This document shows, in pieces, positions 20,128 through 61,103 of a DNA stretch of 64,000 nucleotides. Source of the DNA: Octopus vulgaris (lineage: Eukaryota); NCBI GenBank assembly GCA_951406725.2, contig OX597829.1, forward strand, positions 49,662,001 through 49,726,000, written 5' to 3'. A program made the translations under genes and the position numbers. The stretch's first letter is position 1, and each line of letters opens with the position of its first letter. The notes under the pieces are model-generated. The model worked only from the letters and a program-made list of their open reading frames with translations, was not told where the DNA came from and made no database searches.

Positions 20128-20951
20128 CAGCATTTCCCCAGTATTCGCAGGGGTTGCGTTCCTAGAGCACTCACGAACAGTGAAAAACCGCGAATATTGG
20201 ACGCGGTTCATAAAAATTTCTCTATATCTCAAAATATAACGTAATAGATGTATATATATAATACTTAATAATAATTTGTTAAAAAATAAAGTAAAATATA
20301 CTGTTACCAATAATGAATGATATTGATTTAAGGCGATGATGATGAAAATAATGAAGGTAATGACTGCACAGTAAAAAAGATTTAAAGCTCTTCAGTTGAC
20401 GCCTCTTCAGGTTTTTTAGGGGGATGTCGTATCTTTGTGCAAGGCTTTCTTGACGGGCTTCAGGAGCATTGTGATGGGAAGTTGCTGTCGCTGCTTCTTC
20501 ATGGTGGTGAGGAGAGTCGAATATATCCGCATGGCAGCATCGATGGCATTCTTAAATTGGAGAGACAGAAACCATATAGGGATCCCATGCTTCCGCCTTG
20601 CCTTGCAATTTCCTTTGCTGTCCTTAAAAGGTCGGACAGACGTTCGATTGCTAGGCTCACCTCATCCTCCTCTTCTTCTGAAGCTGGCGCTTCCTCATCT
20701 TCTTCGCTTCCAGAGTTCGTTAACTCCAACAAATCTTCGTCTGTCAGGGTTTCAGAGTGGACATCGATGAGGTCGTTAAACTCATTTTGTGTGATGTCAT
20801 CAAAACCTTCGCCACCAAGTATCTTTACCAGTTTCACCGCATTGTTGACAGCTTTGTGCTGAATATCTTCAGGTGAGAAGCCCTCGTAGTCCTGGACACA
20901 CTTTGGCCACACTTTGTTGCAGCATGCAATGAAGGTTTCTTTTCTAATATC
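20128..20951 (-). mobile_element. Tigger/pogo-type DNA transposon, 3' end
   Basis: TA then TIR-like cagcatttccccagtattcgcaggggttgcgttcc. Minus strand gives a Tigger-like C-terminus (CNKVWPKCVQDYEGFS...GGEGFDDIT...LTDEDLLEL). Confidence 0.85.
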
Positions 20952-21122
20952 TTTGAGCTCTAAGAGTTTTTTACTCCTATTTCTAGCAATATAGGTGCTA
21001 CTCGGCGCTCTCAGTGCGATCGTGAATTTACTCGTCCGAATCCATTGCATCCACAAGGTGTTGGAGAGAGTTCCGAGTGTAAATTGCCTTGAGGGAACAG
21101 ATCACGCCTGAATTGAAGATAG

Positions 21123-25344: not shown

Positions 25345-25614
25345 TTTGAGCTCTAAGAGTTTTTTTACTCTTATTTCTAGCAATATAGGTGCTTACTCGG
25401 CGCTCTCAGTCACAACTGTTGACAATTGAATGTTTTTTTTTGTTTTATATTGCGTGTGGCTGCCTTCGTTATTCTATAATTTTCACATTACCATTTTGCT
25501 GAACCAGTTATAGATTCACATGGTAAATATACATTCTGATATTTGACATTTAGCCAGACCATCCACCGACGGAGTAGTCACTACCGATGAGCTTGTAATT
25601 TTGAAGTGTTACTA
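25345..25614 (+). repeat. Left part of a hammerhead-bearing ~330-bp direct-repeat unit (continues at 28232-28408)
   Basis: 25375-25465 recurs, diverged, at 28325-28408. Degenerate hammerhead 5' half tcacta-CCGATGA-gctt..aagt-GTTAC-ta at 25578-25614. Confidence 0.55.
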
Positions 25615-25655
25615 GGCGTAGGAGTGAGTGACTGTCTGGTAAGTAGCTTGGTTAC

Positions 25656-27845
25656 AGGTTGCTTCTGCGCATGTGCGAGTCAGTGTTGTGTTTGGCACTG
25701 AAGCGGTGAAGACGTGCTTTTGAAGCCGTCTTGAATTGAACATTTTTAAAGCCCCATTGTAAGGTAAGATTCTGTTTTCTGGGTCCAGTGGGAATTTTTG
25801 TTGAAAATTGTTTTTTACAGGCAGGAAGTCCTACTGGATTCAGAATTCTGATTCTGCCGACATGGGGCAAATATATTTTTCTCGCTGAATTGTGAGAATT
25901 TTGGGGGGCGTATTCGTCTTCGATAATTGAGTGAATATTTTTCTCACCTAATTATGAGAATTGTATTGTGCTGTGAAGAACTTTAAGAATTGTGAGAACT
26001 GTTATATAGGGGAGTGTTTTGCCTCCGAAGTTTGAACAATTTTTACCAATTTTACACCAATTTTTGTGGAAGTTGTGTTCCAGTTGCGGTGTTCCGGGTT
26101 CAATTTAGGCCGGGAGTACCGAATGGCCAGAAGATTTTTTGCTGTGTTATTGACTTTCTTTTGAACTTTATTTGACTTTCTCCTTTTTTGTTTCTTCTGA
26201 TTTCTTTTTCTTCTCGCCTTTTAAGTTTTATTTTGAATATATTTAAAAAAAAGAAAAAAAAAACATTGCAATGAAAAATGACAAAATTTTGGAATGGGAG
26301 ATCATACCGCCTAAAAAGTGGTTAAAAGACCGTGAAGATAGGACGGTGGTGTTGAGAACCTACTCCAAGACGGCAATTGAAAAGGAGTTGGCAGAGTATT
26401 TGCCAACAATTAAATTTTTTTCCAGGGGTGTCAAATATGCAACGGTGTGGTTGCTATTTGCTTGCAAATTTGCTAGTAAACCCCTGGAGGGTAAGGAAAT
26501 TTTATTCCTGCCCACGTACCAAAAAAAGAGACTGACGAAAGCTTGGATTTGCTGGCTGCCACCCGGGATAGAACCCGAGTGGATAGAGGAGACTATCCGC
26601 CGGGGTCTGGGTAGCAGCGAAACTAAGCTCCTTAATGTGAAAGTTCTTCCTGCGGCTGCTTGGGTTGGGTCAAAAGCAATTTTGACCCTTTGGACCCAAT
26701 CAGCCAATCTGGTTCTTCCAGATGTTTTGAAAATGGCCGGGTGCAGGTACCCGGAGATGCTTGAGGGTCGCCCCCTAAGTGTCATCGGTGCTTGGAGTCC
26801 GGACATATAAAGAAGAACTGTCCCCGGGAACAAAATAGGATCCCGGAACAGTTAAGTGAAACCCCTGTAGAAGAGGAAATGATAACGGCCGTGGAAGCAG
26901 AGGACTCCTCAAACAAAGGCCGAAAGAGGAAGGTGAGCAACAATGGGTGCTCACCAAAGGATACTAGGGATGAGGAGGGAAAGGCGAATCTTCCGGCTAC
27001 GGAGGAGACGCACCCTCCCTCAGTTGAAAAGAAAGAAAAGAAAAAGAGGAAGAGAAACGGGACATTACCGGCAGTCGGTGACATAGTACCGGAATGTCCC
27101 GGAACTACGTCGGTTGGGGTTGTGCCACCGACAGGAGAAGAAACACCGTTGGCGGGAACTGTGCCGCCAACGAAAGAATTGAATATCCCGCACCCGAGCA
27201 AAAACGATGTATTGATCCTCTTCCATAGAGGCGGAGAGATTGAAAAGGTGATGGAAAAGCACCATAAGGGAGCACCTTCAGCCTTCACACAGGACCCCGA
27301 ATGGCCTCCGCAGGTAGCTGTGGAGGCCGTGGCGTTCGACGTGACGCTTGGGCTGAAGGAGCTCAATGAGCATTATAGCTTGGTCCCGGGCGACGCTAAC
27401 TCGGAACTCGATTACATTCTGAGGGAGGCGTGGTGGATGGTGGAGGATGCGGGCACAAGTTATTTTGAGGACGAGTCATAAATTGTGATACGACTTGAGG
27501 GGCCCCGACCTAGAGCTGGCGCATTCCTAAGGGAAGTGTAAGCCAGGTCTGGGAGGAGGGGCTTTGTGTTTTGTATTTATATTTATTGAACTATGTTGTT
27601 GTTAGTAATGGACGGTTAAGTCCAAAAATTGAAAAGTTGTAAAAATTGTAAGAGGTTTAATACCTCGTTTTGTGTTTGTTTTTAAAAGAACAATGTTTTA
27701 GAGAAGCAGAAGTCGGCGGGCGCTTTTTGTCTTCTCCCATCCCCATCATCCTTCTTTCATTATCATTCATTTCATTAATGTCCTCGTCCAGCCCGCAAAG
27801 CTAACTTACTCTATGTACTGCCTTAATGGCAAATGTTATGAAATA
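25656..27845 (+). mobile_element. ORF1-only non-LTR retroelement (HAL1-like) nested in a group A SINE
   Basis: 15-bp TSD aagtagcttg(g/c)ttac at 25641-25655 and 27846-27860; tcagt initiator-like motif near the 5' end; single ORF; ends at aataaa. Confidence 0.8.
26271..27481 (+). pseudogene. L1/Tx1-like ORF1 (gag-like CCHC zinc-knuckle protein), one frameshift
   Basis: Adding one C to the C run at 26771-26775 joins the 179 aa and 229 aa ORFs into ~403 aa with EGRPPK-CHRC-LESG-H-IKKN-C (CX2CX4HX4C). Confidence 0.8.
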
Positions 27846-28231
27846 AAGTAGCTTGCTTACGAATCACATGGCTCCGGGTTCAGTCCCACTGCATGGCAGC
27901 TTAGGCAAGTGTCTTCTACTATAGCCTCGGGCCGACCAAAGCCTTGTGAGTGGATTTGGTAGACGGAAACTGAAAGGGCCATCATATATATATGTGTGTG
28001 TATGTGTGTATGTGTGTGTGTGTGTTTTTTTGTGTATGTATGTTTGTGTGTCTGTGTTTGTCCCCCCAATATCACTTGACAACCAATGCTGGTGTGTTTA
28101 CGTCCTCGTAACTTAGCGGTTCGGCAAAAAAGACCGATAGAATAAGTACTAGGTTTATTTTTGCTCGACTAAAGACGGTGCTCCAACATGGCCACAGTCA
28201 CATGACTGAACCAAGTAAAAGAGTAAAAGAG
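27846..28231 (+). mobile_element. Remainder of the split group A SINE (head at 25615-25655)
   Basis: Sequence resumes exactly at the TSD; short TSD acta at 25611-25614 and 28232-28235. Confidence 0.88.
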
Positions 28232-28408
28232 ACTAATATAGTGATCTCGTTCGTTCTGGGCGGTTATCTCCCCTATCAGTATATGAAAATGTGCTTTCCA
28301 AGGGTTTTTTTTAAACCTCTTTTTCCTAGCAAAATAGGGCACTCTTAGTCACAATTATTGACAACTGAATTTTTGCTTTTTGCTTTTATATTGCATATAG
28401 CTACCTTT

Positions 28409-30866: not shown

Positions 30867-31282
30867 TTTAGCGATGGTCATGTTGCCAATTTAGCCAATA
30901 AAAATACACGCACTATATATTTGGTGTTATTTAGCTTCAGCGTTCTTTATTTTTTACATTAATCTTAATCTTATTTCGGCCAGAGTTCTTTCGTTACACT
31001 TCTGTGACCTCATCAGTGGTCCTTTGCTTTCTTCTTTCTTATTTGTGTGTCCCTCCTAAGTAACGATCAGCTATTTTGTATTTTGTATTCCTATTGTATG
31101 TGTCTTTATTTGCGCATGCGTATACCCCTATGTGTGTCTATGTTTAGTAAGTGCGTGAGGGGAGTACCTGTATTATGTGTATCCATGATTGTGTAATTTG
31201 TTTTTATTTATTTTGTTCATGTATTTATACCTACTTATTTTTTGTATTTAATTTAATTTAATTATTTTTAAAATTTTAAATT

Positions 31283-31341
<59 letters not shown>

Positions 31342-31800
31342 TTTAATTCCATTTGTTAATCTGTGTATTTTATTATGTTTTGTTTATATTGTTATCAGTT
31401 TATGGGGATCTTATTCTGTCATATGTTGTGGTGTGTTGGGGGGGGGGTGCTAGTGTTCCATTCCAGTTTCCTATTGAGGCTAGGTTTATCTTCTATTATG
31501 TGTGTAGCTTCTGTAACTTGTCGAAGTGTTGCGTCTGTTCTATGTGATAACAAGATTTTAACTTCTATGTTGTTGAGTGAGCCTCCGTATTCCTGCTCGG
31601 CGTGTTGGTACAGAACCGATGAGCTCTTTCCTTCCTTAAGTTCTCTCCAATGAACATTTACCCGCTCTCCTATGCTCCGTGCCGTTTCCCCTACGTACGT
31701 CGTTGTCTTGTTACTGCATCGTCCCTCTGTACATCTTATACTATAGACAACATTTCTGGCTTTACAGTTTGTTTGTGGGCTAAATCTATACACAGTACAG
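30860..31800 (-). mobile_element. Penelope-like element 3' end: GIY-YIG endonuclease plus terminal region
   Basis: NCKARNVVYSIRC...YVGETARSIGERVNVH...EATHI...PSLN at 31419-31780. Downstream partial hammerhead CTGATGA-ggtca...tggcc-GAAA at 30975-31016. Confidence 0.85.
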
Positions 31801-31838
31801 TTCCTATCAGTACTGATGTGTGTAGATTTAGCCCACAA

Positions 31839-31982
31839 GCAGATATAAACCATTAATAAAACAGATATAACCATTAATTAAAACAGATATAAACTATTAA
31901 TTAAACAGATATTAACCATTAATTAAAACAGATATAAACTATTAATTAAACAGATATTAACCATTAATTAAAACAGCTATAA
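31839..31982. repeat. ~20-21 bp minisatellite (cagatataaccattaattaaaa) x ~7
   Basis: Direct inspection. Confidence 0.9.
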
Positions 31983-42756: not shown

Positions 42757-43320
42757 TCTCATATATATTTATGTCCGTTTTTATTGTGTACTACTCCCAG
42801 ACCATCGTCCTTGTATAAATCTATGTTTGCACCTTTCATTTCTTTTTAAGGACAGCTAGTATATAAAAGCCTACGAGGTCAGCTATTTCGTCCCCGTCAT
42901 AGTTCCCCACTGCTGTATCAAGCATTCGTCTCCATTCTTTTTTTTTTTTACCCAGGAGTTATCATGAAAGAGTAATGGCTTCCATGCGTTCATAATTGTT
43001 TATATCGGTATTTTTTGTAGTGTCGTATGCTTTGCTAAATTCAAGTACCTTCTGAAGCAAGCATTTGGAGATCAAGGAGTAGAACTCTACGATGTCGAAT
43101 TGTATAAATTTGCATTTAGGTTTATCCTCTATGTTCTTAAACCATTCAATAGTTGCATAACCGCATATCCATTGATTAAGATCTGTGTGTACTTTGGTAT
43201 ATCGTATAATGTTATCGAATATAGATTTTGTGAGATTTATTAATCTACTGCCAGGATTTTGTGTAAAATTGTTTTTATGGTCTCTAAGAGATATACAAAG
43301 ATTTCGTGGGATAAGTTTTT
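42757..43320 (-). mobile_element. Penelope-like reverse transcriptase fragment
   Basis: SLRDHKNNF..NP..RLIN, LNQW, FIQFDIVEFY, GNYDGDEIADLVGFYIL, LYKDDGL. Continues at 43740-43770 beyond a SINE insertion. Confidence 0.85.
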
Positions 43321-43324
43321 CTAC

Positions 43325-43738
43325 TCTCTCTCTCTTTCTCTCTTTCTCTCTTTTACTTGTTTCAGTCATTTGACTGCGGCCATGCTGGAGCACCGCCTTT
43401 AGTCGAGCAAATCGACCCCGGGACTTATTCTTTGTAAGTCCAAGTAAGCCCAGTACTTATTCTATCGGTCTCTTTTTGCCGAACCGCTAAGTGACGGGGA
43501 CGTAAACACACCAGCATCGGTTGTCAGGAAATGCTAGGGGGACAAACACAGACACACAAACACACACACACATACATATATATACATACATATATACGAC
43601 AGGCTTCTTTCAGTTTCCGTCTACCAAATCCAATCACAAGGCATTGGTCGGCCCGGGGCTATAGCAGAAGACACTTGCCCAAGATGCCACGCATGTGGTT
43701 GGTTAGCAAGCTACTTACCACACAGCCACTCCTGCACC
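43325..43738 (-). mobile_element. SINE group A nested in the Penelope RT
   Basis: Family consensus match. Confidence 0.92.
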
Positions 43739-47657: not shown

Positions 47658-48484
47658 TGTTTTTTATAGAATTATTTTGATCGAAATAAAATAATTTTGA
47701 TCGAAATTTTAACATGTTCTTTTATGTATATTATACAATATTGCTATCCTTACCCTCGTTTAATGTAACTTCGTCTTGTCATCCCATAGGTTTGCAACCC
47801 ACGTCAGTTTTTTTATTCCGTTTTATGTACGAATAGATCTTCAGTGGAAAATCAACAAATCATTTATTAATTATCCTCCTCATCCTCATCTCCATCATCA
47901 TTAGCATCAAAATCATTAATTATACTATTAATCACAAATTACACAAATGGAATTAACTATCGATGTCAAACTTTAACGCCAAATCATAGCAGTCAAATTA
48001 AAATTTATGACCAAATTCTTTTGGTTATTAACCGAAATTTCTCTGGCATTTCTAAAGTGTTGCATGACTGCTCTCAACATATTTCACAAAAATATTCTTG
48101 CTGCAAAGACATAGTTCATTATCCAGCTATTGTGGTCTTCAGACGTGGCAAAAATACAAGACAAATGCTAATTATTATCTCCATAGGTAATCAAAGCCCT
48201 ATTCAAATTTCTGAACGCTGTACCTCTAAAAAAAATAGTCATAAGATTTTGATTATATTTTCATCTGCATGCTTTTAATCATAATTCCCGAAGCAGCTAT
48301 CATTATAAGAGATTATTTTTGTTTTCAATATCCATATTGTGATTATATTTACCTTCATATCTTTATTTAAGTGATATTTTTTTTAAACGGACATTATCGT
48401 CTGATAATTTTATGACTTGTAGTTAACACTAAGTCAATTGGTCCTTGCACGTTACAATTTATTTTCTTTATGTATTCAAATATA

Positions 48485-49072
48485 TCCTTTTCTACTCTAG
48501 GCACAAGGCCCGAAATTGGTGAGGGAAGGCCAGTTGATTAGATCGACTCGAGACGCAACTGGTACTTAATTTATCGACCCCGAAAGGATGAAAGGCAAAG
48601 TCGACATCGGCGGAATTTAAACTCAGAACGTAAAGACAGACGAAATACCTATTTCTTTACTACCCACAAGGGGCTAAACACAGAGAGGACAAACAAAGGC
48701 AGACAAACGGATTAAGTCGATTATATCGACCCCAGTGTGTAACTGGTACTTATTTAATCGACCCCGAAAGGATGAAAGGCAAAGTCGACCTCGACGGAAT
48801 TTGAACTCAGAACGTAACGGCAGACGAAATACCTATTTCTATTTCTTTACTACGCACAAGGGGCTAAACACAGAGAGGACAAACAAGGACAGACAAACGG
48901 ATTAAGTCGATTATATCGACCCCAGTGCGTAACTGGCACTTAATTTATCGACCCCGAAAGGATGAAAGGCAAAGTCGACCTTGGCGGAATTTGAACTCAG
49001 AACGTAACGGCAGATGAAATACTGCTACGCATTTCGCCCGGCGTACTAACGTTTCTGCCAGTTCGCCGCCTT
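48485..49072 (-). mobile_element. Trimeric group B SINE with one 18-bp TSD
   Basis: TSD tttatgtattcaaatata at 48467-48484 and 49073-49090; three ~185-190 bp units. Confidence 0.9.
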
Positions 49073-53496: not shown

Positions 53497-53937
53497 GGGG
53501 GCGACGAGCTGACAGAATCGTCAGAAGGCCGGGCGTAATGCTCAGCGGTATTTCGTCTGCCGTTACGTTCTGAGTTCAAATTCCGCCGAGGTCGACTTTG
53601 CCTTTCATCCTTTTGGGGTCGATAAAATTAAGTACCAGTTATGCACTGGGATCAATGTAATCGACTTAATCCGTTTGTCTGTCCTTGTTTGTCCATTCTA
53701 TGTTTAGCCCCTTGTGGGTAGTAAAGAAATAGGTATTTCGTCTGCCTTCGCGTTCTAAGTTCAAATGCTGCCGAGATAGACTTACCCTCTCATCCTTTCG
53801 GGGTCGATAAATTAAGTACCAGTGAAACACTGGGACCGATGTATCGACTTAAACCCTCCCATAAAATTGTTGGCCTTGTGCCAAAATTTGAAAAGAATTA
53901 TTATTGTTGTTGTCTGTCGTTTTATCCCCATTAATGG

Positions 53938-53985
<48 letters not shown>

Positions 53986-54146
53986 TATTAGTTCAAATGC
54001 TGCCGAGATAGACTTACCCTCTCATCCTTTCGGGGTCGATAAATTAAGTACCAGTGAAACACTGGGACCGATGTATCGACTTAAAACCCTCCCATAAAAT
54101 TGCTGGCCTTGTGCCAAAATTTGAAAAGAATTATTATTGTTGTTGT
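53497..54146 (+). mobile_element. Dimeric group B SINE plus local duplicate of its second unit
   Basis: Same aaagaaatag|gtatttcgtctg junction as the 48.5 kb trimer; 53758-53913 is repeated at 53989-54146. Confidence 0.85.
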
Positions 54147-54167
54147 TGTCGTTGTTATCATCATTAA

Positions 54168-54204
<37 letters not shown>

Positions 54205-57675: not shown

Positions 57676-58097
57676 TTTATCCTAATCTTATCATTTGCAA
57701 ATCACCTGTTATTGTTTTTATTTTTATTCTTTAATTACTGTGTCTGTAGAAAAGCAGCAGTTTTTGCCAATATCGGATCTTACGAGACCGGCACGGCTGA
57801 AGCCATTAATAATTCAATACTTACAGCAAAAGATAGTTCCAGAGAACCGAAGATCTGTAAAGGAACAACTAGGTGTATTGATTAGGTGTACTGATTAGCT
57901 TTATCTGTATTTTTTTAGGGGATAGCATTATCTGTGTTGGTTTTTCTTTGTTTGCAAGTTCATTATGCTAATTAATATTTACGTTCATTTTTGTTTAATT
58001 TTACTAATCACTTTTAAAACTCTGTGAACTTTACATTAGGATTCATTTATATTTACTAAATTTATTGTGATGTCTCTGTTCAAACTGAGTTTTGTGG

Positions 58098-58646
58098 ATA
58101 GAAATAATACATTTCTAAATCTCTCAGAGAGATTTATGCAGTAGCAGCACGATACAGTGATAGTATGTCGTCAACTTAATGTGACAGTCCCATGAAAGGG
58201 AAGAATATTACTGTTATTTAGCCCTAGGAAACACCATTTCCTGTTGGACTTGACACATTTCCTGTGTCCTAACGTTTTCAAAATGGAGATAAGCACCTCT
58301 ACCCAACAAAGCCAGCGTTCAGAGACTAGTTTCAGAGTCATTGCTCATCATCAGTCTGAAGTAGCATGGCTTGCTAGCTGTTGATGTCTACCTGCCCTTG
58401 CAATCATATTTCAAGTAAAATACATTCAGTGATTTTTGAAAATAGAAATAATATATTTCTAAATCTCTCAGAGAGATTTATGCAGTAGCAGCACGATAAA
58501 GTGATAGTATGTTGTCAACTCAATGTGACAGTCCCATGAAAGGGAAGAATGCTACTGTTATTTAGCCCTAGGAAACACCGTTTCCTGGTGGACTCGACAC
58601 AAATCCTGTTGGACTGTCACATTAAGTTGACAACATACTATTACTG
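58098..58646 (-). mobile_element. 1.5-mer of a 344-bp hammerhead-bearing unit with short terminal inversion
   Basis: 58098-58265 is repeated at 58442-58609; 58610-58646 is an inverted copy of an internal segment; TSD-like actgagtt(tt)gtgg on both flanks. Confidence 0.8.
58318..58360 (-). ncRNA. Minimal type I hammerhead ribozyme motif
   Basis: Minus strand ttcaga-CTGATGA-t-gag(caatga)ctc-t-GAAAC-ta-GTC-tctgaa: 6-bp stem I, 3-bp stem II, palindromic ACTAGT stem III, GUC site. Confidence 0.8.
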
Positions 58647-58904
58647 AGTTGTGGGAATTTCCTATGAGCTGAGTTCCAGAGAGAATAAAAAGGCTGAAAT
58701 GTCATTAGGAACATTTTGATTCATTGACATTTCGTGTTTGTTATAGTTTAAAGATGATAGAAGAGCGATAGCTAAAGCATAAGAATGTAGTGGGTGTATG
58801 TTGGTACAACCTGAGATGAAATAGCAATTAAGGTTTCAAGATGGCACTTTTACTATTTTCAGATAAAGGATTTAGGATTTTTTTTTATCTATCATCTGTA
58901 TCAG

Positions 58905-60860: not shown

Positions 60861-61103
60861 GCCGTTCTTGAGCAAGACACTTCATTTCACATTACTCTAG
60901 TTCACTCTGTTGTAGAAATGAGTTGTGATGCCACTGGTGCCAAGCTGTATCGCTGACGAGAGAAACGTGTGGGTGCGAAACGTTGGGTAACTCTTATATA
61001 AAATTTTATTGTAATAATTAATGCCTTATTTTTTTAGAGTGTGCTTCTTTCTGATATATGCTTTTTTATTAACTATATGTGTGTGTACGTGTATATGTAT
61101 ATA

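Follow-up and report, generated by a model that had tools for sequence, protein, structure and literature searches.

The window, by which we mean the whole 64,000-nucleotide stretch analysed, is AT-rich animal DNA, rich in microsatellites and SINEs. Between positions 25345 and 28408 two nested insertions interrupt a repeat that belongs to a multi-copy family. This locus consists of about 1.4 copies of a 318–328-nt repeat, split at the predicted core by a SINE and a second element nested within it; a minimal type I hammerhead fold inside a long stem is predicted once the flanks are rejoined. This is called the 25-kb unit (25345..28408), and a unit at 58098..58642 on the minus strand, the 58-kb unit, served for comparison. 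The features of the 25-kb unit, and a third piece of the family, are as follows.

20952..21015 (+): third family piece, about 64 nt, 95% identical to 25345-25410, inside a decayed frame
25345..25470 (+): left partial repeat copy with a hairpin box, a GTCAC box and a TGCATA-type box; 73% identical to 28306-28407 (112 columns)
25471..25556 (+): the monomer's unique middle, lying upstream of the long stem; the ranges 25436-25531 and 25476-25602 are spanned by family contigs
25557..25583 (+): predicted 5′ arm of the long stem (extended stem I), with the 6-bp stem I strand at 25578-25583; from the MFE fold and a duplex test
25584..25590 (+): putative core box 1, CCGATGA, differing once from CTGANGA; from the sequence and a descriptor scan
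25591..25607 (+): predicted stem-loop II, a 9-nt loop on a 4-bp stem whose basal pair is G-U
25608..25614 (+): putative core box 2 region, GTTAC where GAAAC is expected, reaching the insertion point
25615..25650 (+): SINE, 5′ part, with the inner 10-bp target duplication's left copy at 25641-25650
25651..27845 (+): inner element, no terminal repeats, 3′ end AATAAA; single copy in the window
26247-26810 and 26765-27481 (+): ORF1/gag-like frames of the inner element, one break near 26765-26810, CCHC knuckle
27846..28231 (+): remainder of the SINE, opening with the right copy of the 10-bp duplication and closing with a GAGTAAAA-type tail
28232..28235 (+): second ACTA, putative target duplication of the SINE
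28236..28265 (+): predicted cleavage triplet (28236-28238), stem I 3′ strand (28239-28244) and the long stem's 3′ arm
28264..28408 (+): right repeat copy, with boxes common to the 58-kb unit at 28264, 28295, 28348 and 28389

The SINE spans 25615-28231 and the inner element 25651-27845 (2,195 nt), framed by exact 10-mers at 25641 and 27846. Without the inner element the SINE is 412 nt long and shares 73–82% identity with 11 further near-full copies that the window contains. A first-pass annotation had proposed a SINE holding a nested 2.19-kb element, and the coordinates, the 10-mers and the 412-nt SINE with its 11 relatives all agree with that description. It had also named acta as the target duplication of the SINE. 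ACTA does flank both ends (25611-25614 and 28232-28235), yet taken by itself it is weak evidence: TA also precedes four of the six other SINE copies with an intact start, and a regular target duplication was seen by eye in none of the other printed copies. The CCHC knuckle of the inner element scored E 0.0035 against zf-CCHC, under the Pfam cut-off, and comparison of its proteins with the protein atlas gave leads under 0.9 only. The element lies near the 5′ end of the SINE and may be a non-autonomous non-LTR element, possibly one that targets SINEs. Elsewhere in the window, SINE-like sequence forms tandem repeats at 48532-49022 (period 190) and 53758-54204 (period 232).

Measured at the GTCAC box, the interrupted repeat has a period of 318 nt; the preceding box gives 328 nt. 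The right copy stops at a (TA)25 run. The direct repeats of about 330 bp reported at first pass are thus real, with this somewhat shorter period and just 73% identity. The third piece, at 21 kb, interrupts a frame (20499-21101, minus strand) that resembles the end of a Tigger/pogo transposase, a likeness for which Pfam gave no support. No tandem array with two complete ribozymes was found: there is one damaged core at 25 kb and one intact core at 58 kb, and the 25-kb locus is therefore a decayed monomer and not an active retrozyme.

We found words from the left half of the unit in 7 of the 24 sequencing runs listed, none of the seven recorded as RNA. DNA contigs from four of these runs, representing three organisms, were aligned on 25345-25636 (292 bases), yielding 434, 524, 422 and 420 family contigs per run, mostly 80–95% alike. 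This supports a diversified multi-copy family, as the first-pass annotation had suggested for an old family of monomers; its length estimate of about 330–345 nt gives way to 318–328 at the 25-kb locus. The contigs over 25436-25531 and 25476-25602 run from the last repeat box through the middle part towards the ribozyme. Among the 15 of 19 joints listed, four return from 25602-25606 to 25350-25436 (25602 to 25362 or 25363, 25606 to 25350, and 25606 to 25436), leading from the ribozyme region back to the repeat copy; these are given as coordinates only, the letters between not being included. Three of the 15 switch strand, near the edge of the aligned stretch.

Summed depth, which is not copy number, falls about 5- to 10-fold in all four runs between 25575-25584 and 25605-25614 (488 to 46 in run X1, 917 to 169 in X2, 180 to 31 in X3 and 1,686 to 242 in X7), so most relatives cease matching just before the damaged GTT. 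Variant letters are listed for 40 of 70 rows, none of the 40 beyond 25570. Outside that list each run holds further changes (by hand count one or more C>T, two or more T>A and one or more T>C), their places not given; without placing them, these are compatible with an intact core in the family, which we infer. In organism B one contig covers 25474-25634, and the SINE junction is therefore common to it; run X7 has zero cover at 25625-25634. A loose end of the family behind 25529 (X3 and X7) reads, by eye, CAGGTAG about 44 nt before the core. The same heptamer lies 40 nt before the core of the 58-kb unit and is absent from the 25-kb copy. An AG/CT step stands at the foot of the long stem in both settings, after CTGAC in the family (25536-25555 region of the loose end; 58394-58372 on the minus strand). 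That it is a 3′ splice site is speculative; the idea comes from Drosophila Penelope, in which PMC4209133 reports that an intron ends at helix I.

The comparison unit has the following parts.

58098..58642 (−): comparison unit, 1.5 monomers with period 344, repeats 92% identical
58084-58091 and 58643-58650: two copies of an 8-nt flank (duplication) around the unit
58318..58360 (−): intact minimal type I hammerhead, CTGATGA at 58354, GAAAC at 58333, predicted cut after 58324
58611..58645 (+): inverted copy of the GTCAC-box region, 35 nt, at the 5′ end of the unit; 94% complementary to 58500-58534

Helix III of this hammerhead is palindromic, ACTAGT. The inverted piece is of the Penelope type and had been missed in the earlier annotation; none was seen in the 25-kb copy.

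Joining the flanks of the SINE gives the degenerate hammerhead sequence as it had been written out at first pass, and its 6-bp stem I is present in the MFE fold. In that fold stem I (6 bp) is followed by 7 unpaired bases, stem II (4 bp) and 10 unpaired bases, and 25557-25577 pairs with 28246-28265 as the long stem; the unpaired spacing, 7 and 10 around a short stem II, is identical in the intact 58-kb ribozyme. A relaxed hammerhead descriptor makes three matches in 128 kb of window, one of them the 58-kb ribozyme, and two in shuffled sequence totalling 100 kb, a rate of roughly one per 50 kb for such geometry; after excision it gains one match, exactly at the junction. The duplex of the arms that flank the 2.6-kb insertion reaches −24 kcal/mol, a value attained by 21 of 8,530 control stretches. 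Over the core there is no open frame of 40 aa. Geometry and position together support a hammerhead relic in the rejoined unit, on the evidence of modelled folds. The energy of the rejoined fold is reached by 71 of 200 shuffles (z −0.26), a test that is uninformative because the intact 58-kb ribozyme region is also no better than shuffles (z −0.64, 49 of 200). When letters common in the family are put into the left arm, pairing improves at just one position out of four, and as a test of the long stem they are not significant, since 95 of 500 random triples jointly equal three of them. Rfam hammerhead models gave no gathering-score match in the window; the intact 58-kb motif itself had no match at E ≤ 10.

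The core boxes of the 25-kb copy are CCGATGA and GTTA in place of CUGANGA and GAAA, and helix III is one change away from the ACTAGT palindrome of the 58-kb ribozyme. Five differences separate its core from the 58-kb core (U4, 11.1, 13, 14 and 16.2), three of them at conserved hammerhead positions. With these five departures the copy is likely dead and would not cleave. The TT that replaces AA in core box 2 may be a double substitution, or may be filler of the SINE junction since it lies at most six bases from it; the distance from stem II to stem I stays ten bases under either reading. Small hammerheads of Penelope-like elements (PLEs) are said to cleave as dimers.

Are the two units related? 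The three motifs that the first-pass annotation had listed downstream, in the same order, were located in both (28264, 28295 and 28348 against 58292, 58231 and 58185 on the minus strand), and a fourth, TAYTGCATA, follows at a 31-nt spacing that is the same in both. Offsets of the four boxes from the cut are 26, 57, 110 and 151 nt in the 25-kb unit and 32, 93, 139 and 181 nt in the 58-kb unit; a short internal duplication at 58 kb, noted by eye, explains much of the shift. Blastn (E ≤ 10) and nhmmer (E ≤ 5) found no match between the units. The initial unanchored pairwise alignments had scores reached by 42 of 500 and 94 of 500 shuffles. Single-period alignments under 14 scoring schemes were reached by at most 4 of 300 shuffles in four schemes and by 10–13 in another four, and were at chance in six, so the alignment proposed earlier as a check beats shuffles under some schemes and is at chance level under others; the best-scoring one leaves the two cores unaligned. 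Anchored at the cut, the downstream alignment was reached by 2–24 of 300 shuffles and by 2–51 of 1,240 genomic windows over seven schemes, and the upstream alignment was not significant (21–145 of 300 shuffles). An alignment with both ends fixed on a shared motif looked stronger, was biased, and was set aside. A SINE at 14.7 kb outscores the 25-kb unit in local alignment to the 58-kb unit and was rejected as unrelated. The flanks of hammerheads at 31 kb and 61 kb score below the 25-kb unit against the 58-kb unit in all three schemes used.

Seven family variants are listed in two of the boxes: six match the letter found at 58 kb and one departs from it (by eye). These are not independent, because the right repeat, which had suggested the link, has five of the six as well. 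CAGGTAG, at about 44 and 40 nt before the respective cores, is the one independent sign of kinship. The evidence is suggestive, and from sequence comparison we consider it quite likely that the 25-kb and 58-kb units are related.

Penelope-like remnants occur elsewhere in the window. A GIY-YIG frame at 31419-31877 on the minus strand (Pfam E 0.0039, below cut-off) is followed about 400 nt on by a hammerhead with an intact core near 31016 on the same strand, unlike both units; 30960-31877 (minus strand) is a Penelope-like 3′ end. Decayed frames at 42962-43456 (minus) and 47871-48278 (plus) resemble PLE reverse transcriptase and linker regions; Pfam gave no match on either. From these remnants it follows that the partner class exists in this genome, none of them being linked to the family, and we found no autonomous partner element that is. 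At 60947-60990 (plus) a hammerhead-like core, CTGACGA ... GAAAC, with a poor stem I, lies at the end of a SINE-like stretch and is possibly a further PLE terminal fragment.

A pattern made from the family box had no match in metagenome contigs or in viral contigs. Its six matches in prokaryote genomes lose their likeness 16–33 bases around the pattern and were dismissed as chance. A second pattern, an intact core plus the first box, had none in viral contigs and ten in metagenome contigs, eight of which were rejected on folding without hammerhead stems. The other two, L009 and L010, are near-identical; in each a minimal hammerhead of the PLE type, sharing the helix III palindrome, sits inside a perfect 36-bp inverted repeat, and there is no wider similarity to either unit. 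A sigma-70 promoter scan was discarded as inapplicable to an animal genome.

Elements of this kind have been described, as non-LTR retrozymes and as pLTRs of Penelope-like elements, which the first-pass annotation missed. Animal non-LTR retrozymes are portrayed as tandem units of 150–450 bp that carry type I hammerheads and are expressed as circles, mussel units measuring 350–390 bp (excerpts of Cervera and de la Pena, 2020; PMC7229834). The 25-kb unit is a non-coding head-to-tail unit within that range (period 318–328) and part of a multi-copy dispersed family. It shares with retrozymes, as those excerpts present them, the low GC, the head-to-tail repeat, the scattered monomers and the type I hammerhead with a weak palindromic helix III; units of 350–390 bp in mussel and 330–350 bp in axolotl are given for comparison. 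Unlike them, the 25-kb copy has a damaged and interrupted core, comprises under two full units, has no tandem array and is known here from DNA alone. The host lineage is absent from the lineages named in the excerpted portions of the non-LTR retrozyme papers. Newt and axolotl satellite 2 (about 330 bp), as excerpted, is alike in unit size and in its dimer-dependent type I hammerhead, and unlike in its long arrays, tens of thousands of copies and loop 1–loop 2 contacts.

Minimal dimer-type ribozymes are presented as general in PLE pLTRs (excerpts of Cervera and de la Pena, 2014; PMC4209133), and partial tandems, inverted 5′ copies and 30–40-bp tails as PLE marks (excerpts of Craig et al., 2021; PMC8557442). 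A preprint links retrozymes with the terminal repeats of PLEs across 35 genomes, with no mollusc among them in the excerpted text (Li et al., 2026; 10.64898/2026.07.22.740005). The units resemble PLE pLTRs, so described, in the minimal core, palindromic positions 15.2–16.2, partial tandems and microsatellite neighbourhood, and the 58-kb unit in its 30–40-bp inverted 5′ piece; they differ in that neither has an attached RT/GIY-YIG frame. Their stems are a 6-bp stem I in a long extended stem and a stem II of 3–4 bp, against 4–5 bp and 7–8 bp given for Schistosoma PLE motifs in the excerpts. A squid genome is credited with 235 Rfam hammerhead loci (PMC6962438). No description of the family turned up in literature listings on hammerheads, retrozymes, Penelope or SINEs in octopus and cephalopods, though supplements and repeat libraries may list it; a large ribozyme-repeat family in this lineage is apparently undescribed.

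On balance we think it rather probable that 25345-28408 is a decayed copy of a non-LTR retrozyme, a non-autonomous kind of Penelope-like element; PLEs likely mobilised it, and it is likely a relative of the 58-kb unit. Beyond the structural, family and alignment evidence given above, the Penelope-type hallmarks of the 58-kb unit match those in the excerpted text of PMC8557442, mussel retrozymes measure 350–390 bp, and a PLE origin of animal retrozymes has been published. Alternatively, the locus could be the 5′-truncated, partial-tandem pLTR of an autonomous Penelope-like element, 318 nt being the length of a second, truncated copy. Most insertions of PLEs are truncated partial tandems whose pLTR carries one minimal hammerhead, PLE-type ribozymes are minimal with a palindromic helix III, and the go-back joints listed, at 127–170 nt, give other spacings in the family. 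Against this, contigs cross the junction of repeat and middle, which would be artificial in a truncated tandem and yet recurs in many loci, and among ORFs of at least 90 aa no PLE-like frame flanks either unit; we regard the pLTR reading as unlikely, if a serious competitor.

More improbable still are two readings that we rate about equally. The hammerhead relic may be real and the two families unrelated, or alike only in generic PLE features, the boxes being chance matches in AT-rich DNA. The failure of blastn and nhmmer to match the units and the non-significant upstream alignment fit this, as does a hand estimate that an exact 8-mer or a one-mismatch 10-mer is expected 1–3 times between sequences as long as these. 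Chance is a poor account, however, of four boxes that keep their order and lie at compatible distances from the cut, one spacing being exact, of an anchored downstream score that exceeds 96–99.8% of genomic controls, of hammerhead flanks at 31 and 61 kb that score below the 25-kb unit in three schemes, and of CAGGTAG at a matching offset in the family when the 25-kb copy lacks it. It is just as doubtful that the family has no working ribozyme, whether from an accidental hammerhead look or from stems kept lineage-wide around a dead core. Five departures from the 58-kb core, three at conserved positions, a relaxed geometry met about once per 50 kb and a window without any Rfam hammerhead match would suit that reading. 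So would published cases: as excerpted, lizard PLE inserts in vitro without cleavage (PMC11167929), and eight of nine frog retrozyme dimers failed to cleave (10.64898/2026.07.22.740005). But a chance match would have to fall exactly at the insertion junction and inside a long duplex, the relatives cease matching at 25602-25606, ahead of GTT, every run includes the required kinds of change among its unlisted ones (places not given), and Rfam misses the intact 58-kb ribozyme too.

If the retrozyme reading holds, then by analogy with known families transcripts of active members would be head-to-tail multimers, in which two adjacent minimal hammerheads could pair through the palindromic helix III and excise a monomer that may become circular. 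A Penelope-like RT/GIY-YIG protein supplied in trans would nick AT-rich DNA and copy the RNA, and such copying would yield insertions of more than one unit, short fragments (20952-21015) and inverted 5′ pieces (58611-58645). Point changes (U4>C, C11.1>U and G16.2>A relative to the 58-kb core) together with the SINE insertion would have cost the 25-kb unit its core. The excerpted account of the lizard PLE has RT start in an AC-rich stem-loop, with cleavage dispensable in vitro (PMC11167929). At the bolder end, and in our view improbable, the units would be far-diverged branches of one old cephalopod retrozyme superfamily with few short boxes kept besides the ribozyme, these boxes, foremost the GTCAC hairpin, being the cis signal where the Penelope-like RT binds and starts. 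The hairpin is the site where the 21-kb fragment ends and is copied by the inverted piece at 58 kb; the four visible insertion ends lie at differing distances from it. The first-pass annotation had likewise suggested that the boxes may be RT-recognition or promoter signals, which is conjecture.

A single dead copy has little importance alone; it points to a large ribozyme-repeat family. Three layers at the locus form a clean dating series, in which the retrozyme came first, the SINE second and the ORF1-like element last. Should kinship with the 58-kb unit hold, the few boxes kept across the divergence would be candidate cis signals in mobilisation of the Penelope-like kind, a step for which in vitro work covers one element alone (PMC11167929). 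Were the GTCAC hairpin such a signal, thousands of insertion ends would map the minimal template of Penelope-type retrotransposition.
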